Of a DNA stretch of 64,000 nucleotides, positions 17,678-39,441 are shown one piece after another (within the stretch, counting starts at the first letter, position 1; each line of letters begins with the position of its first letter). Both the position numbers and the translations under genes were made by a program. Below the pieces are notes generated by a model. It saw only the letters and a list, made by a program, of their open reading frames with translations, was not told the origin of the DNA and made no database searches. The stretch spans positions 64,001 through 128,000 of the forward strand of contig JBGAON010000003.1 in the NCBI GenBank assembly GCA_044221725.1. Direction: 5' to 3'. The stretch is from Elusimicrobiota bacterium. Its GTDB lineage: Bacteria; Elusimicrobiota; Elusimicrobia; F11.

Positions 17678-17971
17678 ACCGCTCTGGCCGCTTTGTCATC
17701 CGTTAGCTCCTTCATAAAAACGAATCGTTACGAGGGTGAAAAGAGTTGGTGAAAAATGACGTTTAATCACATTCCTCAATGAACGCATGCGATTAGAATG
17801 GCGTGATCCACTGAAATATTCAATGCGATTTTTCAAAAGCATTTGAATATTACCGAGATTTGTGGGCCGCAAAAACGATATTTTGCAACAGCCGGCGAAT
17901 ATTCGCCGTACAATCCAACAAGTTCTTATCGCAGGGCCCTTCACAATTTCAAATGCAATTTACTAGGATCC

Positions 17972-18142
17972 GGCCACACGCTTAATCGACGGCAACTTTG
18001 CCCGAGAGCGGGGAACCCAGGATGAAACATTCGTTGAGAATGCGCGAGTGTTGGGGTGAATGATCAAAGCGTCTTGCGAACTCGGATGCCACGAACTAGG
18101 GCCCTCCAGCCCGAACCCGACAGCTAACCCCGTCAGCCAACA
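17972..18142 (+). ncRNA. c-di-AMP (ydaO/yuaA) riboswitch
   Basis: Conserved blocks cgcttaatc, agcggggaaccca, ggggtgaat and agggc...gcccgaacccgacagctaaccccg, upstream of a KimA/YdaO-like gene. Confidence 0.9.
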
Positions 18143-18157
18143 AAGGAAGAGCCAATG

Positions 18158-18216: not shown

Positions 18217-20166
18217 ATGTTTCAGAAGTTGCGGAATTTGGTGTTTGGCAAGCCTCGGGATTTAAACGATCCCCACATTTTCCACCACACGTCGCTTATT
18301 GCGTTTCTCGCCTGGGTGGGCCTGGGCGCTGATGGTCTTTCCTCCTCCGCCTACGGCCCCGATGAAGCGTACCGCGCGCTCGGATCACACACGCACCTGG
18401 CCATCTTTCTCGTTGCCATGACGGCCATCACAATTCTGGTCATCTCGTTTGCTTATTCGAATCTCATCGAATATTTTCCCGGGGGCGGCGGAGGATATCT
18501 TGTCGCGTCGAAATTGCTCGGCCCGAAAGCCGGTGTGACATCCGGATGCGCACTCTTGATCGATTATGTGCTCACAATTTCGGTGTCGGTTGCGTCCGGT
18601 TGCGATGCGTTGTGGTCGTTTCTTCCGGCGCATTGGGCGCCTTACAAATTGACCGTCGAGTTTGGCGTGCTCGTCTTCCTTATTATTCTCAACATGCGCG
18701 GCGTAAAAGAGTCGGTGACATTCCTAGCGCCAATTTTCATGCTTTTTATTCTCGCCCATCTTTTCATGATTCTTTACGCGGTGGGCAGTCATTTTTCGGG
18801 ACTTCCGGCTGTTTTTCACGACGCGCATGTCGATTTCCATGCATCCGTCTCCACGCTGGGGTTGGCGCCCGTCGCGTTTATTTTGTTGCGGGCTTACTCG
18901 ATGGGCGGTGGAACCTATACCGGTATTGAAGCGGTTTCAAACGGTGTCGCGATGCTGCGCGAACCGCGTGTCCAAACCGGCAAGCGCACGATGTTCCTTA
19001 TGGCCACCTCTTTGGCATTCACGGCGGCCGGCATTTTGTTTGGTTATTTGCTCACGAACGCGATGCCGATCGAAGGCAAGACGATGAACGCGGTGCTTCT
19101 CGAAAATCTCTACGGTGGATGGGGCATCGGAAAATATTTGATTATTGGGACGCTCATTACCGAAGCGGCGCTTCTGTTCGTTGCCGCGCAAGCCGGATTT
19201 TTGGACGGCCCTCGTGTGCTCTCAAACATGGCGCTCGATTCGTGGATGCCGCACCGCTTTTCGCAGCTGTCGGATCGGCTCGTTACGAAAAACGGCATTG
19301 TGCTGATGGGCTTGGCCGCGATGGGCACGCTCATGTACACACGCGGAAATATTTCGCTTTTGGTCGTCATGTACTCGATCAACGTGTTCCTCACGTTCAC
19401 GTTGACCGAGCTCGGCATGGTGCGCCATTGGATCCTCGAGAGAGGTCGTGAGCCAAAGTGGAAAACGCTGCTCACGATTCACGGGGCCGGGCTCGTCATA
19501 TGTGCGAGCATTCTGTGCATTACGCTGTACGAAAAATTTTCCGAGGGCGGCTGGGTGACAACCGCGATTACGGCGCTCACGATTGTTATTTGTTTCCTGA
19601 TCAAAGCGCATTACCGGCATGTTCAGCAGGGCTTTAAGCATCTCGATGATGTTTTAAAAGATGTTGAGTTGCCGGAGCTCCCCGATATCAAAAAGCACCC
19701 GCTAAACAAGGCCGCGCGCACGGCGGTGTTGCCGGTTCAGTCGTTTTCAGGGTTTGGTATGCATCATTTGCTGGCCATTCTCAAATGGTTTCCGGGCGAC
19801 TTTGAAAACGTGATCTTTGTTTCGGTGGGCGTGATTGATTCCGGAAGTTTTAAAGGTGTGGATGAAATCAAAGCGCTCGAAGCGCGCGTGCGCGGCGATT
19901 TGGAAAAATACGTGCGCTCCGCCGCCCAATACGGGATCAAAGCGGACTATCGAATGGAAATGGCCACCGAAGCCGTCCCGACCGTGGAAAAAATCTGTCG
20001 CAGTGTTGCGAAGGAGTTCCCGCGCGCCATGGTTTTCACCGGAAAACTCATTTTCCGTAAAGAACATTGGTACCAACGAATTCTCCACAACGAAACCGCT
20101 TTGTCGTTGCAGCGCCGGTTGCATTTGGACGGAATTCCGACGATGGTGCTGCCGATTCGCGCTTAA
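18217..20166 (+). CDS. APC-superfamily transporter, KimA/YdaO-like (probable K+ uptake)
   Basis: DGLSSSAYGPDE, LLIDYVLTISVS, TGIEAVSNG and C-terminal RILHNET; preceded by the c-di-AMP riboswitch. Confidence 0.85.
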   Translation: MFQKLRNLVFGKPRDLNDPHIFHHTSLIAFLAWVGLGADGLSSSAYGPDEAYRALGSHTHLAIFLVAMTAITILVISFAYSNLIEYFPGGGGGYLVASKLLGPKAGVTSGCALLIDYVLTISVSVASGCDALWSFLPAHWAPYKLTVEFGVLVFLIILNMRGVKESVTFLAPIFMLFILAHLFMILYAVGSHFSGLPAVFHDAHVDFHASVSTLGLAPVAFILLRAYSMGGGTYTGIEAVSNGVAMLREPRVQTGKRTMFLMATSLAFTAAGILFGYLLTNAMPIEGKTMNAVLLENLYGGWGIGKYLIIGTLITEAALLFVAAQAGFLDGPRVLSNMALDSWMPHRFSQLSDRLVTKNGIVLMGLAAMGTLMYTRGNISLLVVMYSINVFLTFTLTELGMVRHWILERGREPKWKTLLTIHGAGLVICASILCITLYEKFSEGGWVTTAITALTIVICFLIKAHYRHVQQGFKHLDDVLKDVELPELPDIKKHPLNKAARTAVLPVQSFSGFGMHHLLAILKWFPGDFENVIFVSVGVIDSGSFKGVDEIKALEARVRGDLEKYVRSAAQYGIKADYRMEMATEAVPTVEKICRSVAKEFPRAMVFTGKLIFRKEHWYQRILHNETALSLQRRLHLDGIPTMVLPIRA

Positions 20167-25116: not shown

Positions 25117-25882
25117 GGTACATTCCCGCCTGTTTTACCAAACGCAACGGAACGTGAAAGAGCTCCGTGAGATTCGTTTCGGTAAGAATTTCTTTTTTGG
25201 GGCCATCCGCGAAGATTCTTCCATTTTTTAGCAACACGATGCGCTCGATTTCCGGAATGATATCCGATAAGTGATGCGTGACAAGCACGATGCCAATTCC
25301 GGCACGCGCCAGTTTTCGCAGCGTCTTTTTAACCAAAACCTGGCCTTGCAGGTCCAAACTGTTCATCGGTTCATCGAAAACAATAAGCCGCGGCGTGTGA
25401 ATGAGGGCTCGCGCGATGAGAACACGGCGCGCCTCGCCGGAGGAAATGTGAGCGAAGGTTTCGTTCTCGAGATGCGTGAGCCCCAACCACGTCAAGATTT
25501 GTTTTGCTTGTTTTAGCATCGCGGGCGTCACACGATTGTTTTTCCAAAGGCCAACGCTTGAGAAAAAACCAGAAAGAACCGCTTCGAGCGCCGTTACGTT
25601 TTTCGGAAAAAGCGCCTGCCAGTCGTACGAAACAATGCCAAGCTGCGAGCGCAACGCGAAAACGTCCCACGTTTTTGAACCAAACAGCGTCACGCTACCG
25701 CCCGTCGGATAAAGTTCACGCGTCATTGCCTTGATCAATGTGGATTTGCCGCTGCCGTTCGCACCCACGATGGCCACCTGCTCCCGCATCCCAATTTTTA
25801 GAGTGACGTCGGTCAAAACATCGCGTTCGCCGCGATGAACGGTGACGTTTTGGAACCAAACCGCAAATTTCTTTGTTGGCAT
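25106..25882 (-). CDS. ABC ATP-binding protein (ModF/YlmA-like)
   Basis: GANGSGKS, ISSGE, FDEP and LVTHH. Confidence 0.88.
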   Translation of the reverse strand: MPTKKFAVWFQNVTVHRGERDVLTDVTLKIGMREQVAIVGANGSGKSTLIKAMTRELYPTGGSVTLFGSKTWDVFALRSQLGIVSYDWQALFPKNVTALEAVLSGFFSSVGLWKNNRVTPAMLKQAKQILTWLGLTHLENETFAHISSGEARRVLIARALIHTPRLIVFDEPMNSLDLQGQVLVKKTLRKLARAGIGIVLVTHHLSDIIPEIERIVLLKNGRIFADGPKKEILTETNLTELFHVPLRLVKQAGMYHAY

Positions 25883-25934
25883 CGTTAACGATCATCGCAT
25901 TTTCCGAAAAAAATTTTTTACCATAGTGATTCCA

Positions 25935-27050
25935 ATGAAAAATAAGAAAAGAATTTCGACGCCGTATTATCTGATCGACGAATCACGACTTCTGAAAAAT
26001 CTAAAAAAGATTGAGCTGCTGCGGGAGCGCTCCGGTGCCAAATGTGTTTTGGCGCTCAAATGTTTCTCGACGTGGGCCGTTTTTGATCTCATGCGAAAAT
26101 ACATGGACGGAACAACATCGAGCTCGCTGTACGAGGCGAAGCTCGGGGCTGAAAAATTCGGAAAGGAAGTTCACGCGTACAGTGTTGCGTGGTCGGCAAA
26201 CGAAATAGAATCCGTTCGTAAATTCGCCACGAAAGTTATTTTTAATTCGACGTCGCAGCTGCGTCAGTTCCTGCCGCGCGTGAAGCATTTGCCGATCGGT
26301 ATGCGCGTAAATCCGGGTGTCAGTCATTCGGGTTTTGATTTGGCGGATCCATCTCGAAAATTTTGCCGTCTTGGCGCGACAGAAATGAAAGATATTCAAT
26401 CCGTCATTTCGAATTTGTCCGGACTCATGTTTCACTGCAACTGTGAAAACGACAGTTTTGAGAGTTTTTCGCGGATCCTCGACACAATCGAGCGAAAATT
26501 CGGAAGTTTGCTTAAGAATTTAAGCTGGGTTAGTCTCGGTGGAGGAATCTATTTCACGAAAGAGAACTTTTTTTTTGATAAGTTCTGCTCGCGAATTTTA
26601 GAGTTTTCTCGACGGTACAACGTGCAAGTGTATTTCGAACCCGGCGAAGCGTCGATCACGCAGTCGGGTTTTCTTGTGACCAGCGTTTTGGATATCGTGA
26701 AGAACAAAAAAGATATCGCGATCGTGGACGCGGCTGTTGAAACGCACATGTTGGATTTGCTGATTTACAACGCGAACGCGAAAGTTGAGTTGCCGAAAAA
26801 TGGTCGGTACGCATACATGATTGCGGGAAGAACGTGTTTGGCCGGTGATGTGTTCGGCACCTACAATTTTCCAGAGAAACTGAAGGTGGGCGACCGCGTG
26901 ACGTTTTCAGACGCAGCGGGTTACACCATGGTGAAAAAGAATTGGTTCAACGGTGTTGCGATGCCATCGATTGTGGTGCGGCGCCTGAATGGTCGAGTCG
27001 AGCTGATTCGAGAATTTACGTACAGCGATTTCTTGCATAACTTGTCGTGA
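25935..27050 (+). CDS. nspC: Carboxynorspermidine decarboxylase
   Basis: TPYYLIDE, LALKCFS, SLGGG, TCLAGD and YTMVKKNWFNG. Confidence 0.93.
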   Translation: MKNKKRISTPYYLIDESRLLKNLKKIELLRERSGAKCVLALKCFSTWAVFDLMRKYMDGTTSSSLYEAKLGAEKFGKEVHAYSVAWSANEIESVRKFATKVIFNSTSQLRQFLPRVKHLPIGMRVNPGVSHSGFDLADPSRKFCRLGATEMKDIQSVISNLSGLMFHCNCENDSFESFSRILDTIERKFGSLLKNLSWVSLGGGIYFTKENFFFDKFCSRILEFSRRYNVQVYFEPGEASITQSGFLVTSVLDIVKNKKDIAIVDAAVETHMLDLLIYNANAKVELPKNGRYAYMIAGRTCLAGDVFGTYNFPEKLKVGDRVTFSDAAGYTMVKKNWFNGVAMPSIVVRRLNGRVELIREFTYSDFLHNLS

Positions 27051-27066
27051 TTGGGAGGAAGGTGAA

Positions 27067-28317
27067 ATGAAAAAGAATGTTCTGATTATTGGGGCGGGCG
27101 GCGTTGCCCATGTGACAGCGCACAAGTGCGCTCAGAATAACGATATTCTTGGCGACATTTGCATCGCTTCGCGTACGATCGAGAAGTGCGACAGAATTAT
27201 TGAGAGCATCAAACGCAAGAAGAACCTAAAAGATAAATCGAAAAAACTTTACTCCCGCAAGATCGACGCAATGAATGTGTCGGCCACCGTTGAGCTCATC
27301 AAAGAAACGAAATCCGAAATCGTCATTAATCTTGGGACCGCCTTCTTGAACATGTCCGTGCTCGAGGCTTGCATCGAAGCCGGCGTTGCGTACATGGACA
27401 CGGCCATTCATGAGGATCCGGACAAAGTTTGTGAGGATCCGCCATGGTACGCGAACCACGAGTGGAAGCGCGCCGCGCGCTGCAAAGCCAAAGGAGTTGC
27501 CGCAATTCTTGGTGTTGGATTTGACCCCGGCGTCGTGAACGCTTACGCGGCGTACGCTCAGAAAAATCATTTCGACAAAATTGACACGATCGATATCTTG
27601 GACGTAAACGCCGGTTCGCACGGTCGCTACTTTGCGACGAACTTTGATCCGGAAATAAACTTTCGGGAATTTAAGAAAGTGTGGTCGTACATCGATCGGC
27701 AATGGGTGGAAGACGCCGTTCACTCGAAAAAATGGATTTATGATTTTCCGGTCGTTGGAAAACAACCGGTGTATCTCACCGGGCATGACGAGCTGCATTC
27801 GCTGTCGAAAAACATCGATGCAAACAGCATTCGTTTCTGGATGGGATTCGGCGATCATTACATCAATGTATTCAATGTGCTGAAAAATGTTGGCATGCTC
27901 TCCGAGATTCCGGTAAAGCTCAGCGACGGCACCGAAGTCGTGCCGCTCAAGATAATGAAAGCGATTTTGCCCGATCCGGGTTCGCTGGCGCCGGGCTACA
28001 AAGGCTACACGTGTATTGGGGACCTCGTGAAAGGAACCAAAGACGGAAAATACCGTGAAGTGTTTTATTACAACACGTGCGATCACGCCGCTTGTTACAA
28101 AGAAGTGGAATCACAAGCGATCTCGTACACCGCCGGTGTTCCGCCTGTTGCTGCAGCTATTTTGCTCGCGCAAGGTGTTTGGGATCCAAAGAAAATGGTG
28201 AATGTGGAGGAATTGGATCCGGAACCATTCTTGAAGCTGCTCGATAACATGGGACTTCCGATGGTGATCGAAGACAAAACGGAGCCGAAAAAATCGACGG
28301 CGAAGGTGCTTGCGTAA
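27067..28317 (+). CDS. Carboxynorspermidine dehydrogenase (saccharopine dehydrogenase family)
   Basis: IIGAGGV, GFDPG, FATNFDPEIN and SQAISYTAGVP; adjacent to nspC. Confidence 0.92.
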   Translation: MKKNVLIIGAGGVAHVTAHKCAQNNDILGDICIASRTIEKCDRIIESIKRKKNLKDKSKKLYSRKIDAMNVSATVELIKETKSEIVINLGTAFLNMSVLEACIEAGVAYMDTAIHEDPDKVCEDPPWYANHEWKRAARCKAKGVAAILGVGFDPGVVNAYAAYAQKNHFDKIDTIDILDVNAGSHGRYFATNFDPEINFREFKKVWSYIDRQWVEDAVHSKKWIYDFPVVGKQPVYLTGHDELHSLSKNIDANSIRFWMGFGDHYINVFNVLKNVGMLSEIPVKLSDGTEVVPLKIMKAILPDPGSLAPGYKGYTCIGDLVKGTKDGKYREVFYYNTCDHAACYKEVESQAISYTAGVPPVAAAILLAQGVWDPKKMVNVEELDPEPFLKLLDNMGLPMVIEDKTEPKKSTAKVLA

Positions 28318-28378
28318 CAGGCCCCAAGAAATTATTTCTTGACAGTCTAAAGAAGTTCGTGTAACTAAGCGGTGTTCT

Positions 28379-28440
28379 TCGGCGGAATTTGTGTCAACTT
28401 GCCCAGCCGATCTCCAAGGAGAAAATGGGGCTAAAGCGAC
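28379..28440 (+). ncRNA. SAM-II/SAM-V-like riboswitch aptamer 1 (transcriptional)
   Basis: P1 tcggc/gccga, AUUU loop, UUGCCC pairing with GGGC-U-AA, P2a gtc/gac; upstream of the sulfate uptake operon. Confidence 0.72.
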
Positions 28441-28452
28441 GATGAGATTTTT

Positions 28453-28493
28453 AACCCGTGTCAGCTTATGTGTTGACACGGGTTTTGTTTTTT
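28453..28493 (+). terminator. Intrinsic terminator between the two aptamers
   Basis: Perfect 11-bp stem aacccgtgtca/tgacacgggtt plus a T-rich tail. Confidence 0.82.
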
Positions 28494-28509
28494 CCGGCAA
28501 CAAAAAACA

Positions 28510-28572
28510 TGGCGGGAATTTAGATTCCAAATTGCCCCAGCCAGCGAAAGCGAATAGGGAGCTAAATAGGAG
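28510..28572 (+). ncRNA. SAM-II/SAM-V-like riboswitch aptamer 2 (translational)
   Basis: P1 tggc/gcca, AUUU, UUGC...GCUAAA; P2a ttcc pairs with the RBS ggag, 6 nt before ATG 28579. Confidence 0.72.
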
Positions 28573-28578
28573 ACGTAT

Positions 28579-29961
28579 ATGAAGAAGGGCGTTCTATTGG
28601 TCCTGCTTGGGGCCGCCGCGATTCCGCGCGGTGCTGTTTTCGCGGAAGATGCCCCAGCCTCCGCCACCGTTCAAACCATTGAGCAGCGTTTATCGATTCT
28701 CGAACGCAAATACGAAATCGATAAAGAAGACGCCGCCAACAAAGCGAAAGACGCTTCGTTCGTTACAAGCGGAAATGATGGTTTCCAAATTAAATCTACC
28801 GACGGCAACTCGTATCTGCGAATTTCGGGGTTGTTCCAAGCCGATTACCGAGACTATCTCGCGGACCATGGTTCCACGCAGCTCAATGATCAGTTTTTTC
28901 TTCGTCGCGTGCGCCCGACGTTCGAAGGTATCGTGAACAAATATATTGGGTTTCGAATCACGCCGGACTTTGCGAATGGTGGAGGAACCACCTCCGGTCC
29001 GACGTCAACCTTGTTGCCCGACGCTTACGTGGATTTGTTGTACGTGAACGGCGCGAAGGCGCGTGTGGGAAAGTTCAAACCGCCGGTGGGATTGGAAAAT
29101 CTGCAGTCGGATCCGGTCATGCCGTTTGTCGAGCGTTCGCTGGTTACGAATCTCGTGCCGATTCGCGATACCGGCGTTCAGTTGAGCGGTGATTTCGTGG
29201 GCGGTGCGATTAGTTATCAGGCGGCGGTTGTAAACGGCGTAGCGGATGCCGCGTACAGTGAGAGTGACACGAACGATGCAAAAGATTATGAAGGGCGCCT
29301 CTTCTTGCAGCCGTTCAAGCAATCGGCCTCCGAGTGGATCAATGGCTTAGGGTTTGGTGTCGCCGGGAGTGTGGGAGATCAATTTGGGAATGCGACCACG
29401 TCCGGATTAACCGCGGGGTACCGCACGGAAGGTCAACAAAACTTCTTCACGTATCAGACGGGCGCGTTTGCGAGCGGACAAAGAAAACGGTTCTCGCCCC
29501 AGGGGCACTGGTATTTCTCCCATGTGGGACTTTTGGCGGAATACGTAGCGTCGTCCCAAGAGGTAACGCGCGTGACCACATCAACGGCGACCGCATCGAT
29601 TACGAACCACGCGTGGCAAGTAACCGGTTCGTACGTGCTGACCGGAGAACGCCGGTCGTACGGTGGTGTGAAACCGCGGAAGAACTTCGATCCAAAAACG
29701 CACGGATGGGGTGCCTTTGAAGTCGTCGGTCGCTACGCGGTTTTTAAAGTTGACGATGAAGCGTTCACGAAAGGGTTCGCGTCCGTAGCGACGTCTGCCA
29801 AGAAAGCAAAATCTTGGGGAGCCGGCCTCAACTGGTATGTGAATAACAACCTGCGGCTGGCGTCGAATTACGTGGTCACTTCGTTCGATGGCGGGGCCGC
29901 GAGCGGAAACGATCGTCCCGCAGAAAAAGTCGTGTTAAGTCGTGTTCAAGTGACATTCTAA
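28579..29961 (+). CDS. OprO/OprP-family anion-selective porin (probably sulfate)
   Basis: Signal peptide; FFLRRVRP, GKFKPPVGLE, ERS and GLNWY; terminal Phe; first gene of the sulfate operon. Confidence 0.88.
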   Translation: MKKGVLLVLLGAAAIPRGAVFAEDAPASATVQTIEQRLSILERKYEIDKEDAANKAKDASFVTSGNDGFQIKSTDGNSYLRISGLFQADYRDYLADHGSTQLNDQFFLRRVRPTFEGIVNKYIGFRITPDFANGGGTTSGPTSTLLPDAYVDLLYVNGAKARVGKFKPPVGLENLQSDPVMPFVERSLVTNLVPIRDTGVQLSGDFVGGAISYQAAVVNGVADAAYSESDTNDAKDYEGRLFLQPFKQSASEWINGLGFGVAGSVGDQFGNATTSGLTAGYRTEGQQNFFTYQTGAFASGQRKRFSPQGHWYFSHVGLLAEYVASSQEVTRVTTSTATASITNHAWQVTGSYVLTGERRSYGGVKPRKNFDPKTHGWGAFEVVGRYAVFKVDDEAFTKGFASVATSAKKAKSWGAGLNWYVNNNLRLASNYVVTSFDGGAASGNDRPAEKVVLSRVQVTF

Positions 29962-29988: not shown

Positions 29989-30993
29989 ATGAAGATCAGA
30001 AAAATTTTTTTAGTAACGGTTGCCTCGCTGTTCGTGTCGGTTTCGGTATTCCCAAAAGACGTGACGTTGTTAAATGTGTCGTACGATCCGACGCGGGAGC
30101 TGTATCAAGATTTTAATAAGGCGTTCGCGGATTATTGGAAAACAAAAACCAGTGACAATGTCACTGTTAATCAGTCGCACGGTGGGTCGGGCAAGCAAGC
30201 GCGCGCCGTGATCGATGGGCTCGATGCCGACGTGGTGACGCTTGCGCTCGCGTACGACATCGATGCGATCGCCGAGAAAGGGCAGTTGCTTGCGAAAGAT
30301 TGGCAGACGCGTCTTCCGGCCAACAGTTCTCCGTACACGTCAACGATCGTGTTTCTTGTTCGCAAAGGAAATCCAAAACGGATTAAAGATTGGGATGATT
30401 TGGTGAAACCCGGTGTGGACGTGATCACGCCAAATCCCAAGACTTCCGGTGGCGCGCGTTGGAATTATTTGGCGGCGTGGGGGTACGCGCTAAAAAAATG
30501 GAACAACGACGAAGCGAAAGCCAAAGAGTTCGTAACGAATCTTTATAAGAACGTGCCCGTTCTCGACTCGGGCGCTCGCGGTGCGACCGTGACATTTATC
30601 GAGCGCGGAATTGGCGACGTGGCAATTTCTTGGGAAAACGAAGCGTTTCTTGCGACGAACCAGTTTGGAAAAGGCGATTTCCAGATTGTGGTGCCGTCCG
30701 TTTCAATTCTAGCGGAGCCGCCCGTTGCTGTTGTTGAAAAAGTCACCGCACGTCGCGGGACAACCGCTGTTGCGCAGGCGTATGTTCAATATCTTTACAC
30801 CGATGAAGGGCAAGAGATCGCGGCGAAGAATTATTATCGCCCGCGTAACGAAAAGGTGGCGGCGAAGTACGCGGCGACGTTTCCAAAATTAACCTTGTTT
30901 GATATCTCGTTGTTCGGCGGTTGGAAAAAAGCGCAGAAGACGCATTTCGCCGATGGAGGCGTGTTTGACCAGATTTATCAACCCGGAAAATAA
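29989..30993 (+). CDS. sbp: Sulfate ABC transporter periplasmic binding protein
   Basis: [22 protein letters not shown] and [11 protein letters not shown]. Confidence 0.96.
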
Positions 30994-31826
30994 TGTTTTC
31001 GCGTAAAGACCGCGGCGTTTTGCCAGGTTTTGGTGTGACGATGGGCACCACGCTGACTCTGTTGAGTCTGGTTGTGCTCCTTCCGCTTTCCACGTTGTTC
31101 GTAAAAGCGGCAACGTTGAGCCGCACCGAAATCATCGCGCTCGTGACATCGCCGCGCGTGGTTGCGTCGCTGCGTTTGACTTTCGGAATTTCACTGATGG
31201 GAGCGTGTATCAATGCTCTGTTCGGTGTTGTTGTCGCATGGGTGCTCGTGCGTTATTCGTTTCCCGGACGAAAAATTGTGGACGGCATCGTCGATCTGCC
31301 ATTCGCATTGCCCACCGCGGTGGCCGGTATCACGCTAACAACGCTTTATTCGCCGCACGGTTGGATCGGAAAACCATTGGCGGATCTCGGCATAAAAGTC
31401 GCTTACACGCCACTCGGAATCCTCGTCGCGATGACATTCATTGGGCTTCCGTTTGTGGTGCGCACGGTTCAACCCGTCCTCGAAGACTTGGATCGGGATA
31501 TGGAAGAAGCGGCGGCCACGCTTGGTGCGTCGCGTTGGCACACGATTCACGCGGTCATATTGCCGACGCTTTATCCGTCGATCCTCACGGGATTTACGCT
31601 CGCGTTTGCGCGGGCGCTGGGCGAATACGGATCCGTGGTTTTTATTTCGGGCAATATGCCGCTCAAAACGGAGGTTACACCGCTCCTCATCATGACGAAA
31701 CTGGAGCAGTTTGATTACGTGGGAGCTTCTACGATTGCCGTGCTTATGCTTTTGATTTCTTTTTCACTTATTCTTGTGATCAACGTTCTGCAGTGGTGGA
31801 CGCGAAAACGTCAGGGGATGGCCTAA
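30993..31826 (+). CDS. cysT: Sulfate ABC permease CysT
   Basis: VLPGFG, DLPFALPTAVAG and EEAAATLGA. Confidence 0.95.
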   Translation: MFSRKDRGVLPGFGVTMGTTLTLLSLVVLLPLSTLFVKAATLSRTEIIALVTSPRVVASLRLTFGISLMGACINALFGVVVAWVLVRYSFPGRKIVDGIVDLPFALPTAVAGITLTTLYSPHGWIGKPLADLGIKVAYTPLGILVAMTFIGLPFVVRTVQPVLEDLDRDMEEAAATLGASRWHTIHAVILPTLYPSILTGFTLAFARALGEYGSVVFISGNMPLKTEVTPLLIMTKLEQFDYVGASTIAVLMLLISFSLILVINVLQWWTRKRQGMA

Positions 31827-31827
31827 C

Positions 31828-32688
31828 GTGGCGGGCGCGGTTTCACGTCTACAAACAAAATCTTTCGCCGGCGCGTCCAAAGGGATGTCGGAGCCGGCGT
31901 GGGTCAGACGAACGCTGGTCGGGTTGGCGCTCGGGTTTCTCGCGTTTTTCCTATTTATTCCTCTCGCAGCGGTTTTTTACGAAGCGTTGCAGAAGGGGAT
32001 TGGTCTTTATTTCGAAGCGATCAAAGAGCCGGTAGCGCTCGCAGCGATTCGCTTGACGCTGCTCGTGTCATTGATCGTGTTGCCGCTCAATATTATTTTC
32101 GGAGTAGCGTCGGCATGGGCGGTCTCGCGATTTCAATTTCGAGGCAAGGCGCTTCTCATCACCCTCATTGATTTGCCGTTCTCGGTTTCGCCGGTCATCT
32201 CAGGAATGATTTTCGTTCTGTTGTTCGGTTCGCGCGGATGGTTCGGGCCGTGGCTGCTTAATTACGGTGTAAAGATTATTTTCGCGGTGCCCGGTATTGT
32301 TCTTGCGACGTGGTTTGTCACGTTTCCGTTTGTGGCGCGCGAACTCATCCCTTTGATGCAGGCACAGGGACAAGATGAGGAATTGGCCGCGTTTGTGCTC
32401 GGTGCGAACGGATGGCAGATTTTTCGACGCGTGACGCTACCGAACATTAAGTGGGGACTTCTGTACGGTATTATTCTCTGCAACGCGCGGGCGATGGGAG
32501 AATTTGGGGCCGTGTCGGTGGTGTCCGGTCACATTCGCGGTCTCACGAACACAATTCCGCTGCACGTGGAAATTCTCTACAACGAATACAATTTCGTCGC
32601 TTCGTTCGCTGTTGCGTCGTTGCTCGCGCTTTTATCGGTGGTGACGCTTGTGGTAAAAGCGATTATCGAACACCGATCAAACACATGA
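31828..32688 (+). CDS. cysW: Sulfate ABC permease CysW
   Basis: [12 protein letters not shown] and [19 protein letters not shown]. Confidence 0.95.
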
Positions 32689-33722
32689 GTATCTCCGTAA
32701 AAAATCTAAACAAACGCTTTGGAAAATTGGCGGCCGTGGACGATGTCAGTTTTGACGTCGGCAGCGGATCGTTGGTCGCTTTGCTGGGGCCGAGCGGTTC
32801 CGGTAAAAGCACGCTGTTGCGAATGATTGCGGGCCTTGAGATTCCGGATTCCGGCGAGGTGCGCGTGATCGGCGAAGAAACAACCGCTCGCAGCGCGCGC
32901 GACCGAAATATTGGTTTTGTTTTTCAGCACTACGCTCTTTTCAAACACATGACCGTTTCCGAAAACATAGCGTTCGGATTGAAAGTGCGAAAAGTGCCGG
33001 CCGCGGAACAGAAAGCGCGCGTCGATGAATTAATTGGGCTTGTTTCGCTCGATGGTCTCGGTGGACGTTATCCGAATCAATTATCGGGCGGGCAACGTCA
33101 ACGTGTGGCGCTGGCGCGGGCGCTTGCGCCGAATCCAAAAGTCTTGTTGCTCGACGAGCCGTTTGGTGCGCTCGATGCGAAGGTGCGCGAAGAATTGCGC
33201 AGCTGGATCGTGCGTCTTCACGAACAAACGCACGTAACCACCATTTTCGTTACGCACGATCAGCACGAAGCGCTTGAGATTGCGAGCAAAGTGCTCGTGA
33301 TGAACCGCGGACGCGTCGAACAGAGCGGTACGCCGCTCGAGATATTTGACCAGCCGGCCACGCAATTTGTGGCGGAGTTTGTCGGCGAATCAAATTTTAT
33401 CGAGTCCACGGTGACCGAGCCGGAACTCGTGACATGGGGGCCGTTCCGTTTTACGGTGGTTGGTTACAAACTTGGCCAGCGCGTTCGAATATATTTTCGA
33501 CCGCACGACGTGTATGTGAGCTCGGTTCCAGAAACGTTGCAAGTAAAAGGCCGAATTGTGAAGATGCGTTTTCGCGGCCCGCAGATTGAGGTGTTGCTCG
33601 ACATTGGCGGCGAGAAACACATCATCGCCCACGTGCCGAAAGGTATCGTTCTTGCGAGCGGATTCGAAGTGGGGAAAGAAGTTCATATCGGTATTACCGC
33701 GTTTCAAGTTTTTGCTGTTTAG
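32685..33722 (+). CDS. cysA: Sulfate ABC ATP-binding protein CysA
   Basis: [24 protein letters not shown] and [16 protein letters not shown] overlap with cysW. Confidence 0.95.
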
Positions 33723-33725
33723 AGA

Positions 33726-34577
33726 ATGAATCTTGTCCTGAGTCTCGTTTTCTGGGGCTCCGCCTTCCCCGGCATTCGCGCCGCGCTGCAAGGATACACA
33801 CCGGTAAAAATGGCCGTGTTTCGCTTCTTGATCGCGTCGGCCACGCTCGCCATCATCGCCATCTTTAAAGGCGTGCGCGTTCCCGCACGTCGGTTTCTTT
33901 GGCTCATTGCCATGGCCGCATTTTTTTCCATCCCCGGTTACCATGTGTGCCTGAATTTTGGAGAGAGCCACGTGACCGCAAGTTCGGCCAGCCTCATTCT
34001 TAGCACGATGCCGATTCTCACTATTTTTTGGTCGCGGCTTTTTCTTGGCGAGTCGTTTCACCCGGTCGCTTGGATTGGCGTGTTGCTCAGTTTCGTGGGG
34101 GCGGCGGTGATCGCGCTCGGTGAAGGCGGTGGCTTTCATTTTAATCCGTACGTCGGCTTTGTGTTTCTTTCCTCGGTCTGCGGAAGCGTCTACTCAACAA
34201 TGCAAAAGAAATTGCTCGAGAGCGTGCCGCTGTTCGATTTTAATTGCTTCGTAATTTGGTTGGGCACGCTATTTCTTTTGCCTTTCTCATCCGGATTGCT
34301 TAACCAAATAAGCGCTGCTTCGCCCGCGGCGACCGGCGCTGTGATTTACCTTGGAATATTCCCGGCCGCACTCACTTTTCTTCTGTGGGCGTCGGTGGTC
34401 AAAAGTATGCCGGTGTCACGCGCCGTAACGTTCTTGTATCTGATTCCGGTCGTGGCCACGGGGATCGGATGGTTTTGGATAAACGAGTTGCCGTCGTTGC
34501 TTTCGTTAGTCGGTGGAGCGCTCATTCTGTTGGGACTTGCGATCAGCCAGTTCATCATCAAGAAAGCCGTTTCCTAG
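33726..34577 (+). CDS. EamA/DMT family transporter
   Basis: Ten-TM duplicated EamA pattern, WGSAF. Confidence 0.88.
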   Translation: MNLVLSLVFWGSAFPGIRAALQGYTPVKMAVFRFLIASATLAIIAIFKGVRVPARRFLWLIAMAAFFSIPGYHVCLNFGESHVTASSASLILSTMPILTIFWSRLFLGESFHPVAWIGVLLSFVGAAVIALGEGGGFHFNPYVGFVFLSSVCGSVYSTMQKKLLESVPLFDFNCFVIWLGTLFLLPFSSGLLNQISAASPAATGAVIYLGIFPAALTFLLWASVVKSMPVSRAVTFLYLIPVVATGIGWFWINELPSLLSLVGGALILLGLAISQFIIKKAVS

Positions 34578-34804: not shown

Positions 34805-37800
34805 CTAAAGCTGTTTGTGAAACGGGTCGGCACCGATGGTGCCGACCAATTTCTTTAAATAGTCCGCCTTTTCGGTTTCGGAGAGTTTGGATTTCGCGAT
34901 AGCCAAGCGATCGGCGAGGCTGAGTTGATTGACCGTTTCACTGTTGCCCGGTCGCGCACTAAATTCCTCGATGTAGGCGATGTGCTTTTTCCAAAGTTGA
35001 ATGTCGCGCTGTTGTTTGGTTTTTAGCCGTTCTTTGTACCAATCGCTCTTAAGCACCGCGTCGCGGCTGAACATTTTGCGGATCTCCGGATGATTGATGT
35101 CTTTGCCCTCGAATTTCCCTTTGGCCATGATGTGCAACAGCGCCCGCAGCGGCGGGCAGGCCGCATCAACGCTGCCGTCCTTAAAATAATTTTCGGCGAC
35201 CGATTTTTGCGTCGATACAATTTCGTGAACGCCGTCGGCGTACATGTCGATGTTTTGCTTTTCCGGTTTCAGCATTTCATCAGAGAAGACGGTATTCGGG
35301 CTTTCAAATAATCTGCCCAAGAAAATATCGACGAATCGAGACGTAATGCGGTACCCGAGGCGGCTCGCCTCTACCTTTTGGCCTTTGTGCTCAAAGTCTT
35401 CAATCTTCTCAAGAAATAAATTCTTGATAAGGAACTGCGGATCGCGTTCGGACACTTTCATGCGGGACCAAATTTCCGGAATCAGCATGCTGATATCATG
35501 ATCCACGCGGATGTTGGGACCGATATGACCCGCAGCGGTCGTAAATCCGGCGTATCCGGTAAAAATATAAGAGATAAGAGCGTTGTTCAGGTCCACCACT
35601 GGCCAAAGCGCGTTGAACGGACCCTTGGTTAGCGCTCCTTCGGATCCAAATCCGGTCGTCGACGGCGATTTACCGGTGAGACTCGAAATGAAGTCCATGA
35701 ACAATTCTGGAAGTTCCTGAAAATGGATGGGGTTGTACACGGCGAGCGGAGGAATTCCGAGCTTCAGATCGGGCGGATTGTTGCGGCGACCGGCGAGCAC
35801 CGAGTTCACAGGAAAATACACGGGCTTGTCCGCGGCGATTCCGCGCGACAAGCGCACACCGATTTCAGCCAGATAGGCGTCACGCGCGTTTACGCGGTCC
35901 GGGCGTTTCTGCAAGTAACGCGGATTTTTCGACGGCTTTCCGTCCACCAACCGAGCGTGCGCGGACGACACGACGTAGGCCGGTTTGTCGTCCTGAAGGA
36001 AACCGAGTAAGAGCTTTTTCATCGGTTCGCTGTAATCGTCGAAGTCCACAATGTTTTCAACAAGATCAATTACGTCCGGTCGGGTGAGCGGCTGCCAGTT
36101 CGATAAAAACGTGTTCGGATCGGACAAATCCGCTTCCGCTTGTTTGTCGTAGCCGCGGAACCTGGCGTCATCCGGGCGCTGAAACAAATAGGATTCGCAA
36201 TTCGTGACCAGTTTTACGCTCGGGTAATTTTCCTCCGGATAAAGATCGCTGAGCGCTTCTCGCGGCACGACGATGGACGCCGTGATATCGTCTTCGACTT
36301 GCACCTTTTCGGCGGGATTGAAATCGGGGCGGACTTTGTAGATACGCCAAGAGCCGTCCTTGTCGTGGCCCACCCGCAAATAGTTGGCCACGAGTTTTTG
36401 ATTTTCGTACTTGAGCTCGTGCCCAAGGAAACCATTAATACGGTCGACGCTAAAGTGTTCGCGCCAGTCGTTGGCCCATTCCACCTTGTAGTATCGCTTC
36501 ACGACAAAGATCAGTTGGCGAATGGTCTGTGGAATGGAGGCAAGCCACGTGTTGTACTCGTCTGTAAAATCCACCGATGGGGTAAAAAGTTTCACGACGG
36601 ATCCGAGCGAACGCTCCGGGCTCAGGATCGGGCGGTGACGGTAATTTTCCGGTGGATTTTTAAAACGGTGCGTGAAATCTTTTTTCAAAATCTCAGCGAC
36701 TTCGTCAAAGTCTTTCTGAAAATCGCGGACGAAAACAGGTCCCTGCAACATCGAATACGAAATGGATTTGGAAATCTCGGATTTACCGCCGCCCGAGACC
36801 GTGCAGGGTTTGTGGCAAAGCGTTCCCTCGGCAACGGTTCCAACGAGTCGCCAATATTGACCGCCAATCTGTCGCGCAATGTGAACCTTGTACCCCGACG
36901 GTAACACGTAGATTTCACCGGCCAACAGCTTACGTTTGCGCGTTTTGCCCGCTTGGTCCCACGTGAGCGTTCGCTGGCGAACATTGAACTTTGTGTTCTC
37001 AGGAACATAGACAATGCTCGGATATTTTCTGTCCGTGGCGTAACCGGTGGCTTTCAGATCAACACGGTCCTTCAGTAGTTGCATGGCGCCGTCAAACGAA
37101 CGTTTGTTTTGCGTCCAATTGATATCGGAATGAAATTCGCGTCCCAGAATGTAACTCGGAAACGCAATTGCGCCTCCCGAGTGCTCCTCTTCGGCCAGAC
37201 CAAACAAGTTCGCTGCAAAACTGATCTGCGTTTTCACCTCTTTTTTACAGTAACCGAAATAATTGTCCGCGATGAGTGTCACCATGACACCGCGCGCGTC
37301 CCGGCAAGTGGCCTTGAACGCCTCGCCACCGTTGTAAAGTTCATCTTCGGTTTTCCAGCACATGCCGTCGCGTTTCTGGCGTTCCGTGGCTTTTTCAAAC
37401 GGCGGAAGGCCAAGGTCTTTCTTTTTCAATTTGATGAGATGCGGCGCCAAAATCACGCAGCCGGTGTGCCCGGTCCATCCATCCACATCGAGTGCGGCAT
37501 CATTCTCAGGGAGGAATGGGTCGCCGCCGTTTCCAAAAATAGTTTCGACAAAATCAAGATTTCCAACGAGGTTGCCTGGAACGAAGAAGCGGATTTCCAT
37601 TGTTTTGTTGGTGGTGCCAGGGCCTGCGGCGGGGCAAACGAGCGGACGCATCAGGAGCGACACGAACAATTCGGCCTTTTGCTTCTGGGTGGCCGTGAAC
37701 GGCAGTTGCATGAGTTCGCTCGGAGGTTTAACGGCCGCCGCGAACAAATTCGCAAACACGTATTTGGGAAGCGCCAGTTTATCTTCCGGAATCGGGAATC

Positions 37801-38260
37801 CGCCTTCGGCAATATGGAACACGCCCTGCGTGGTTCGGCGATCGTGCTTGGGATTGTGAAGCACGCCCTGTTTCACACGGTAGGTTTTAACAATGTCGGA
37901 TTCGAAAATATCTTGGTCGGGTGGCAACGACAATGTGCGCGCCAAGCCCGGGCGATCAAGGATAAATGCGGCGGGAAGTCTGAGAGACGATGCGGCTGCC
38001 ACATCCTTTAAATAATCGTTCAGAAAGTCTTGGATACGGCGATCGACGGGGGGGGCGTAGTTGAGCAGCAGCCGATTTTTTTCTTGGTAATTGCGAAGGA
38101 ATGGTTTTGCAAGCTCGACAAAACCCGGATCGTCCTGCGCGCCGAACGTGGGTTGGCCCAACGCCGCAAGTTTTAAATTAATGTAGCGAACGAGACTGTC
38201 GTCGTTTAAATGAGAGGTGCCATTTTGAGAAAGTCCCTCGGCAACCGTTTGGGAATTCAT
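34805..38260 (-). CDS. PPi-dependent phosphoenolpyruvate carboxykinase
   Basis: About 1150 aa; DRRTTQGVFH, NYFGYCKKEVKTQI, HKPCTVSGGGKSEISK and GKSPSTTG match the PPi-PEPCK family as I recall it. Confidence 0.88.
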   Translation of the reverse strand: MNSQTVAEGLSQNGTSHLNDDSLVRYINLKLAALGQPTFGAQDDPGFVELAKPFLRNYQEKNRLLLNYAPPVDRRIQDFLNDYLKDVAAASSLRLPAAFILDRPGLARTLSLPPDQDIFESDIVKTYRVKQGVLHNPKHDRRTTQGVFHIAEGGFPIPEDKLALPKYVFANLFAAAVKPPSELMQLPFTATQKQKAELFVSLLMRPLVCPAAGPGTTNKTMEIRFFVPGNLVGNLDFVETIFGNGGDPFLPENDAALDVDGWTGHTGCVILAPHLIKLKKKDLGLPPFEKATERQKRDGMCWKTEDELYNGGEAFKATCRDARGVMVTLIADNYFGYCKKEVKTQISFAANLFGLAEEEHSGGAIAFPSYILGREFHSDINWTQNKRSFDGAMQLLKDRVDLKATGYATDRKYPSIVYVPENTKFNVRQRTLTWDQAGKTRKRKLLAGEIYVLPSGYKVHIARQIGGQYWRLVGTVAEGTLCHKPCTVSGGGKSEISKSISYSMLQGPVFVRDFQKDFDEVAEILKKDFTHRFKNPPENYRHRPILSPERSLGSVVKLFTPSVDFTDEYNTWLASIPQTIRQLIFVVKRYYKVEWANDWREHFSVDRINGFLGHELKYENQKLVANYLRVGHDKDGSWRIYKVRPDFNPAEKVQVEDDITASIVVPREALSDLYPEENYPSVKLVTNCESYLFQRPDDARFRGYDKQAEADLSDPNTFLSNWQPLTRPDVIDLVENIVDFDDYSEPMKKLLLGFLQDDKPAYVVSSAHARLVDGKPSKNPRYLQKRPDRVNARDAYLAEIGVRLSRGIAADKPVYFPVNSVLAGRRNNPPDLKLGIPPLAVYNPIHFQELPELFMDFISSLTGKSPSTTGFGSEGALTKGPFNALWPVVDLNNALISYIFTGYAGFTTAAGHIGPNIRVDHDISMLIPEIWSRMKVSERDPQFLIKNLFLEKIEDFEHKGQKVEASRLGYRITSRFVDIFLGRLFESPNTVFSDEMLKPEKQNIDMYADGVHEIVSTQKSVAENYFKDGSVDAACPPLRALLHIMAKGKFEGKDINHPEIRKMFSRDAVLKSDWYKERLKTKQQRDIQLWKKHIAYIEEFSARPGNSETVNQLSLADRLAIAKSKLSETEKADYLKKLVGTIGADPFHKQL

Positions 38261-38328
38261 ATCTGCTCCAGAAGTTTTTTGTTCCGCCGGGCGCCGTTGC
38301 TCGTGGAAGGAAGTGAATTGTACTTTTT

Positions 38329-39441
38329 TTATTTCGTGTTTTCGCGGGCGAGATCCCACCGGTACTGTAGGAACTTGTTCCATTCCTTGTACGTATCGAA
38401 CAAGTCGCCCGGAGGAAATGTCTCGATCATGCCGAAAACCATTTCGCTTTGATTGGGATCGATGCATTCAAGCGCAAACCGATAACCTGCCGCCGACTCT
38501 TGAATCTTTGTTCGCACGGTTAGAATGCCGGGGCCCGGATGATTCGTGAGAAATTCAGGATCTTCGATAATGCTGTACGCCTCATCGCGCAGTTTAAGTT
38601 CCAGTTCTTTGCGCTCGCCCGCCGTCAAGTGGGGGCGGCCTTCCAATAGCGGGCGCGCCAAATAAAAATGTTTGTAATTCGTGACCCGAAATTGCGGGGC
38701 CCGGTAAACGAGCACATTTTTGTTTTCGGAATCCACGGCATAGGAGCTCGTGGACGGACGAAATGAGAACCGATCCTCTTGAGCGGCTTCGGCGTTGCTC
38801 TTCTTGGCGCGGTCCAAGAGCCCACTGAGAAAAGTGGACCAATCGGTAAAAGCGGATTCGATGTTGGGGATCAGGTCGGAATTCTCATACGCCTTGTAAA
38901 TATCTCCGGGATAGAGCGTGGTGATCGCAAAAATTCGTTCGTCCGATTGCGCGTCGTGGCAGTCCAATTCAAATTTGGATCCTTTCAGCAGTGTGTCGGC
39001 TCGAAATGTTCGGTTGCCTTGTTTGTTCGTGTACCAGACATACGGTTTGATATCGATCACGGCGTACTCCATTCGCAGCACGCCGGGGCCCGGTTCGTCC
39101 ACAATCTGATAATGCTTTGAAACAACCGAGACGAGCTTCTGGCGTAGATTTTCCGACAGCGCGTCGTATTTCGGTCGATCCTCATCGCGTATCTTTTTCT
39201 GAGGGTTGTCATAGATCGACACAGGCATGATCAGGAATTTGTCGTAATCGATGACCCGTGTCGTCGGGTGCCGGAAAACCAGGGTCTCGGCTTTGAAATC
39301 GACTTTCTGAAAGTCTGTGTAATCGCCGAAGAAGCGGGAGTTCCTTGGCTGTTCGTGCAGCACGCAACTTGAAAGTGCCAGTGCCGAAATAAAACTCAAT
39401 TTGGTTAGTAGATTTCTTTTCAGCGGTTGTCGGATTCCCAT
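38329..39441 (-). CDS. DUF3313-like lipoprotein with a partial second domain copy
   Basis: Lipobox LSSC; SRFFGDY; PGPGVLR and PGPGILT duplicated. Confidence 0.65.
   Translation of the reverse strand: MGIRQPLKRNLLTKLSFISALALSSCVLHEQPRNSRFFGDYTDFQKVDFKAETLVFRHPTTRVIDYDKFLIMPVSIYDNPQKKIRDEDRPKYDALSENLRQKLVSVVSKHYQIVDEPGPGVLRMEYAVIDIKPYVWYTNKQGNRTFRADTLLKGSKFELDCHDAQSDERIFAITTLYPGDIYKAYENSDLIPNIESAFTDWSTFLSGLLDRAKKSNAEAAQEDRFSFRPSTSSYAVDSENKNVLVYRAPQFRVTNYKHFYLARPLLEGRPHLTAGERKELELKLRDEAYSIIEDPEFLTNHPGPGILTVRTKIQESAAGYRFALECIDPNQSEMVFGMIETFPPGDLFDTYKEWNKFLQYRWDLARENTK

Follow-up and report, generated by a model that had tools for sequence, protein, structure and literature searches.

The window, by which we mean the whole 64,000-nt stretch of Elusimicrobiota DNA analysed here, carries a porin-sbp-cysT-cysW-cysA operon downstream of two pseudoknot aptamers, with an intrinsic terminator positioned between these aptamers. 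From their sequence, conservation and context, both switches very probably sense SAM, since 60 of 63 homologous copies have the full pocket core (UUU, UUG and CUAAA), the P1 stem covaries, and most arrays of copies precede methionine, cysteine, sulfate or porin genes. The explanation as a whole, i.e., a double OFF switch in which SAM would act through the terminator and the ribosome-binding site (RBS), is likely, with its ligand, switching, promoter and order of events read from the same kinds of evidence.

The leader, its operon and strand exchange at the terminator

The intergenic region spans positions 28318-28578 and is flanked by a carboxynorspermidine decarboxylase/synthase pair and by the porin operon. 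The features of the window referred to in this study are as follows.

17969-18153, + strand: c-di-AMP riboswitch (RF00379, 61 bits)
25842-28317, + strand: carboxynorspermidine decarboxylase and synthase, directly upstream of the leader
28339-28367, + strand: putative sigma-70 promoter, with a perfect -35 hexamer (28339-28344) and a weak -10 about 17 nt later
28379-28440, + strand: aptamer 1 (short form), composed of P1, third strand GGAA-UUU, P2a, P2 and an optional P3 hairpin
28384-28398, + strand: L1 strand of aptamer 1, antiterminator half A, pairing with the terminator 3' arm (28472-28486)
28433-28445, + strand: 3' tail of aptamer 1, antiterminator half B, pairing with the terminator 5' arm and loop (28454-28470)
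28453-28493, + strand: intrinsic terminator, a 13-bp stem (28453-28484) plus U-tract
28510-28572, + strand: aptamer 2 (long form), with four C-G extension pairs and one bulge
28579-29961, + strand: outer-membrane porin of the OprO/OprP family (PF07396, E 2e-40)
29989-30993, + strand: sulfate-binding protein Sbp (NF008022 and TIGR00971 above cut-off)
30993-31826, + strand: CysT permease (TIGR02139 above cut-off)
31828-32688, + strand: CysW permease (TIGR02140 above cut-off; start uncertain, 31867-32685 scanned)
32688-33722, + strand: CysA ATPase (TIGR00968 above cut-off)
33726-34577, + strand: EamA/DMT transporter (PF00892), with a 3-nt gap to cysA
34805-38467, - strand: 1220-aa ORF without a Pfam or NCBIfam match

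The first-pass annotation had described two copies of one pseudoknot pattern, and every element that it named is found at its place. In aptamer 1, P1 is formed by 28379-28383 and 28406-28410, AUUU is located at 28387-28390 and UUGCCC at 28399-28404, P2a pairs GUC (28393-28395) with GAC (28438-28440), P2 has three C-G extension pairs, a hairpin occupies 28411-28422, and GGGCUAAA lies at 28428-28435. The corresponding elements of aptamer 2 are P1 (28510-28513 with 28540-28543), AUUU (28518-28521), P2a (UUCC 28525-28528 with GGAG 28569-28572), UUGCCCC (28532-28538) and a GNRA-capped hairpin (28544-28551). The motif UUGCCC, previously assigned to both copies, is correct for copy 1, but copy 2 has four rather than three C residues after UUG. 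The proposal that the 3' strand of P2a in copy 2 doubles as the porin RBS holds, as the GGAG that pairs with UUCC is the porin Shine-Dalgarno, 6 nt before the ATG at 28579. A layout like that of aptamer 2 is present in G003 (L333/L024).

Both copies match a single covariance model, at 68.7 and 58.9 bits (both belong to its training set), and this model finds only these two copies in the genome of the window. A descriptor composed of the core, a 4-bp P1 and the CC/GG extension likewise matched only the two window copies in the 2.82-Mb genome and returned no match in the reversed genome or in any of five block shuffles; having been built from these two copies, it shows specificity rather than independence. 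The bare core pattern is unspecific, with 8 strict and 38 loose matches.

Regarding transcription of the leader, a promoter consensus scan reported none, while the homologous locus L130 has a canonical -35/17/-10 arrangement immediately upstream of P1. No terminator was called between the polyamine genes and the leader, and read-through into the riboswitches is therefore possible. A 7-bp inverted repeat, identified by eye at 28325-28341, overlaps the -35 hexamer and is not evident in G003; it might serve as an operator or as a weak stop for the polyamine genes upstream. RNA runs cover the leader only with contigs of depth 2-3.5 from a single study. Judging from the spacing, the EamA/DMT transporter gene is probably co-transcribed as the final gene of the operon. 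The genome of the window also possesses metK, two genes of the PF01507 family and, upstream of a thrC-like gene, a SAM-I riboswitch. Elsewhere in the window, the c-di-AMP riboswitch is followed by a gene for a 649-aa membrane protein (18217-20166) without an NCBIfam match at 1e-10, which we take to resemble a KimA-type potassium transporter, while the 1220-aa ORF presumably resembles PPi-dependent PEP carboxykinases.

The terminator stem (z = -5.65) was not equalled in stability by any of 200 shuffled sequences. Copy 1 had been proposed to form an antiterminator through 28391-28398, and this segment is indeed the exact reverse complement of 28472-28479, in a run that reaches 14 pairs when G-U pairs are included. 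This L1:3'-arm pairing (half A) is the stronger one in window copy 1, at -12.9 kcal/mol (about 1% of 200 shuffles are as strong) versus -7.7 kcal/mol (p = 0.07) for half B, yet it represents only half of a double exchange: forcing either pairing yields one double-exchange fold without the terminator. Moreover, it does not dominate family-wide, as the tail:5'-arm pairing is stronger in 48 of the 55 scored terminator copies and the L1:3'-arm pairing in seven, among which are window copy 1 and several copies in its family. Between genera the sequence changes, but complementarity to the terminator persists. Weak Rfam matches to wcaG, anti-hemB and snoZ182, all below cut-off and centred on the terminator, were rejected.

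With the pseudoknot left out of the fold, the ligand-free terminator fold (-38.9 kcal/mol) is more stable than the antiterminated fold (-33.2 kcal/mol) by 5.7 kcal/mol, so that the ON state, i.e., read-through, must probably be kinetic. The half B helix is already part of the MFE structure when the transcript stops at 28470 and the 3' arm is yet to be made. At low SAM, aptamer 1 would be unlocked and its 3' tail would capture the terminator 5' arm as this is made, after which the L1 strand would take the 3' arm and RNA polymerase would read through, with aptamer 2 leaving the porin Shine-Dalgarno free. At high SAM, the triple-helix pocket would be bound and both L1 and the tail locked in the pseudoknot, allowing the terminator to form after aptamer 1, and in escaped or existing transcripts P2a of aptamer 2 would mask the RBS. 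The OFF logic previously suggested for porin-sbp-cysTWA, acting through terminator and RBS, agrees with the sequence anatomy and with the pairing potential, from which we infer the switching.

The equilibrium preference for the terminator fold would also suit a leader with one working switch, in which either a low ceiling is set by a largely constitutive terminator, leaving regulation to copy 2, or neighbouring sequence masks one of the aptamers. We consider this improbable: both copies have a full pocket, the terminator complementarity is kept across genera, and the tail:5'-arm helix precedes synthesis of the 3' arm, even though the terminator of G003 lies 98 nt from aptamer 1 and linker-mediated silencing of a SAM-II domain is described for a Pelagibacter tandem (PMC11508383).

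Homologous copies, covariation and the binding pocket

A DNA search of 41 related genomes returned three loci, in G003 and G004. A model built from two sequences (R1) aligned 19 matches, which served as the basis of R2, whose training rows include one false and two partial sequences. Applied at E <= 0.01 to 150 genomes of the window's class, R2 gave matches in 60; copies were drawn from its stronger matches, most of those under approximately 27 bits being left out. Re-scanning of 48 loci gave 68 matches, of which five were dropped (four without the core and one cut by a contig end), and the final set comprises 63 distinct copies that make up 49 arrays. They come from 32 genomes of the window's class and four metagenome contigs, and about a quarter of them were part of the model's training set. 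Of the 11 other genomes in the window's family, ten have a real copy, the match in G005 being among those dropped. According to source names, neighbour proteins in two same-class genomes are assigned to Elusimicrobiota and one metagenome neighbour to Ca. Desantisbacteria.

R3 matched eight of 150 genomes of the window's phylum, all from the window's class and one of them false (L359, in coding sequence); it found no copy outside this class among the 150 genomes, and none at E <= 1e-5 in the phyla of G358 and G357 (150 genomes searched from each). A strict pattern scan of GTDB contigs returned 22 loci, several of them inside ORFs, and none was accepted; when six of these loci were tested, R2 scored none of five and gave the sixth 9.3 bits, and R3 detected nothing in five of those genomes. 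A loose pattern matched 250 of 301 genomes of the phylum and a control gave similar results, which rendered it uninformative. Among 120 stretches of viral contigs, no copy of the window subtype, which is distinguished by its C-run/G-run P2, occurred among the rows listed with a P1 score of at least 12; a few copies in these stretches belong to a sister family described below. Two loci have unusual arrangements: L130 (580-2915) carries six window-subtype copies within 3 kb, arranged as three doublets that lie before non-methionine genes, with a separate promoter-like site and two terminators per doublet, and L092 (1166-1572) carries a triple tandem, with a terminator for each copy, before a gene for a 422-aa protein without a Pfam match.

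A lack of covariation among homologues had been named as one result that would refute the first-pass annotation; P1 does covary, with both-sided changes in three of its four pairs. When the 43 long-form copies were aligned without structure, 98.0% of cells were paired versus 94.3% in shuffled alignments, and 19 cells had both-sided changes, all in P1, versus 3.8 after shuffling. P2 and P2a (98.7% and 96.5% of cells paired in the same 43 rows) contain no both-sided change and, being nearly invariant, contribute little covariation. Pair 22:45 is C-G in 57 of the 63 copies, G-C in three and unpaired in three. Two of five whole-structure measures did not rise above shuffles (120/500 and 152/500), and the sequences are related. 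The high conservation of primary sequence, with most P2 pairs never varying, might also be expected of an RNA or DNA element bound by a protein instead of a metabolite riboswitch, a reading that we regard as very remote given the one-to-one match to a solved SAM pocket, the strand-specific placement in 5' leaders, the tolerance of loop inserts of 3-87 nt and the coupling of the expression platforms to aptamer strands.

The binding pocket was mapped on 12 SAM-V contacts as listed in Table S4 of PMC6061858, a source that gives as contacts G5, A7, U8-U10, A18, U19, U20, G21, C46, U47 and A48-A50. Copy 2 keeps every listed pocket or triplex base. The one deviation in copy 1 is a C at position 18, which the SAM_alpha consensus and 56 of the 63 copies also have. 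The SAM-II/SAM-V type of fold and pocket previously recognized is thus upheld by a complete core in both copies together with the covariation of P1. In an anchored parse, the equivalents of U47, A50, U9 and U20, which contact SAM directly, are invariant in all 63 copies. The A7-equivalent is C in 38 copies, A in 22 (including both window copies), U in two and G in one; A7 of SAM-V forms a triple with G21-C46 beside the SAM adenine (PMC6061858). Copies with C7 and with A7 occur in common arrays and before common target genes.

Copy 1 has four P2 pairs below the ligand site, as in SAM-V, while the long form has five P2 pairs, a variable bulge and usually one extra third-strand base. The L3 hairpin, with loops of 3-87 nt, is found in 51 of 63 copies and its absence from the other 12 indicates that it is optional. 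In the copies at L322, L326 and L347, a G-C pair is swapped and an additional base sits beside the pocket; two of these three precede metH.

Target genes, expression platforms and the ligand

SAM OFF switches are expected on methionine and sulfur genes. Named methionine, cysteine or sulfate genes are next to 31 of the 49 arrays (metY 15, metH 5, cysT 3, sbp 3, cysA 3, cysK 1 and metX 1, with one of the three sbp genes being a 57-aa fragment called by eye), and a PF07396 porin, i.e., the family of the window's porin, is next in nine. In three of these nine porin arrays, the three cases looked at (the window, L338 and L340), the porin is followed by sbp. The other nine arrays precede a DsrE-like gene, a peroxiredoxin gene before a cysT-like gene, a DUF3034 gene, an epimerase-like gene and three genes without a family, while of the remaining two one has no clear ORF and one is cut off. 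Such targets are what a SAM OFF switch would be expected to control (PMC1273637, PMC6061858).

The expression platform is a terminator in 56 of the 63 copies (55 called by script and one mis-called row corrected by eye), an RBS within P2a in three, and unclear in four. Thirteen arrays are tandem (12 doublets and one triplet): ten have a terminator after each copy, two combine terminator and RBS, and one is unclear. The two mixed arrays are those of the window and G003, which belong to one genus.

With respect to the SAM double OFF switch, a pattern derived from the window RNA also retrieves the SAM_alpha member L075 (47 bits, cut-off 36), while the weak -10, the combination of terminator and RBS in only two of 13 tandem arrays, the porin-sbp linkage in only three of nine porin arrays and the nine of 49 arrays without a clear methionine or sulfate next gene count against it. 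Some of the variation described above would be compatible with the same fold binding another sulfur-status nucleotide (such as APS/PAPS, SAH or a derivative of SAM), or SAM with strongly shifted affinity: most copies (38 of 63) have C as the A7-equivalent, additional C-G pairs lengthen P2 and are accompanied by a G-rich third strand, sulfate-uptake or porin genes follow 18 of the 49 arrays, and the sister family is found mostly before non-methionine genes. Such a ligand change is nevertheless quite improbable, as A7 is preserved in the two window copies, the direct SAM contacts show no change in any of the 63 copies, C7 and A7 copies share arrays and targets, and 21 arrays precede metY, metH or metX, which are typical SAM-II targets (PMC1273637, PMC4239095). 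For the C-run/G-run subtype as such, it is unlikely, if somewhat less so, that it represents a retuned class reading another sulfur-status ligand or SAM range; in that case it would, together with the sister family, represent redeployment of the SAM-II fold far beyond methionine synthesis, by RNAs largely invisible to current models.

The sister SAM-II-like family is much larger than the window subtype and is unmodelled. A metagenome pattern scan gave at least 120 stretches (loci L057-L176), and among the 123 pattern matches listed four belong to the window subtype and 119 do not, nearly all of the latter representing the sister family. One of 12 tested sister loci (L075) passes the SAM_alpha cut-off. 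Seventy automatically chosen next ORFs of sister loci, many of which start approximately 65 nt downstream, include 11 methionine/SAM genes, five AAA_5 ATPases, two others and 52 without a Pfam family. These RNAs may be SAM-OFF switches on uncharacterised genes. A link to anti-phage functions found no support, with two weak partial PADLOC matches in 45 proteins and mixed neighbours.

Relation to known SAM-II and SAM-V systems

It had been anticipated that standard models may miss the two copies, and this proved to be so: in Rfam 15 neither copy was found at gathering score or at E <= 10, which applies to RF00521 SAM_alpha (cut-off 36 bits), RF01826 SAM_V (41 bits) and RF01726 SAM-II long loops (44 bits). 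These three models also returned no copies in G000, G003 and G004, with up to 150 candidates scored per genome. The subtype is thus missed by Rfam, and part of a little-studied phylum probably governs its sulfur intake and methionine synthesis by this means. The family furthermore constitutes a test set for tandem logic, with single, double and triple copies and terminator-terminator versus terminator-RBS layouts, and it spans short and long triplex forms as well as A versus C at the pocket-flanking triple. The subtype, its lineage and SAM-II control of sulfate uptake were not found in the open-licence literature.

The window subtype resembles SAM-V (RF01826; PDB 6FZ0, PMC6061858) in its H-type pseudoknot, pocket nucleotides, P3 hairpin after P1, four P2 pairs below the SAM site (as in copy 1) and masking of the Shine-Dalgarno by P2a (as in copy 2); it differs in that its P2 consists of C-G runs instead of U-A/A-U/C-G pairs, its control is mostly transcriptional (56/63) rather than translational, and its position 18 is mostly C. 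With SAM-II/SAM_alpha (RF00521; PMC1273637) it shares P1 plus pseudoknot, the core words, C before UUG, a promoter just upstream, a terminator downstream and methionine gene targets, while it is set apart by a longer 5' L1 (4-6 nt), the extension of P2, long L3 inserts that are optional, targets that include sulfate ABC and porin genes, and a different phylum. SAM-II long loops (RF01726; PMC2864571) have in common with it a purine-rich segment of 4-5 nt between P1 and the U-run and optional L3 hairpin inserts, whereas theirs is a short P2, with almost always A before UUU in the portion of the alignment compared, in Bacteroidetes and marine sequences.

The suggestion of a new variant class defined by its loop hairpin was discarded, because SAM-V has a P3 hairpin after P1 (PMC6061858), SAM-II long loops carry comparable inserts, and 12 of the 63 homologues lack it. 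In PMC5473149, SAM-II and SAM-V count as types within a single class, and the window does not contain one of each, as both copies fit one model and have common subtype features; this distinguishes it from the Pelagibacter-type tandem of SAM-II followed by SAM-V. A total of 149 SAM-II/V tandems and 44 SAM-II doublets have been reported, some doublets combining terminator and RBS (PMC9481103). As in these, the first aptamer of the window precedes a terminator and the second covers an RBS, but its two copies belong to one unmodelled subtype, in which the mixed layout is exceptional (2/13 tandems). The loop hairpin and the transcription-plus-translation tandem have already been described for SAM-V and SAM-II, and neither the fold, the mechanism nor the two-level logic is new; what appears to be new is an unmodelled subtype whose P2 carries a C-run/G-run extension and whose A7-equivalent is C in 38 of 63 copies, the lineage in which it occurs, and its sulfate-uptake targets.
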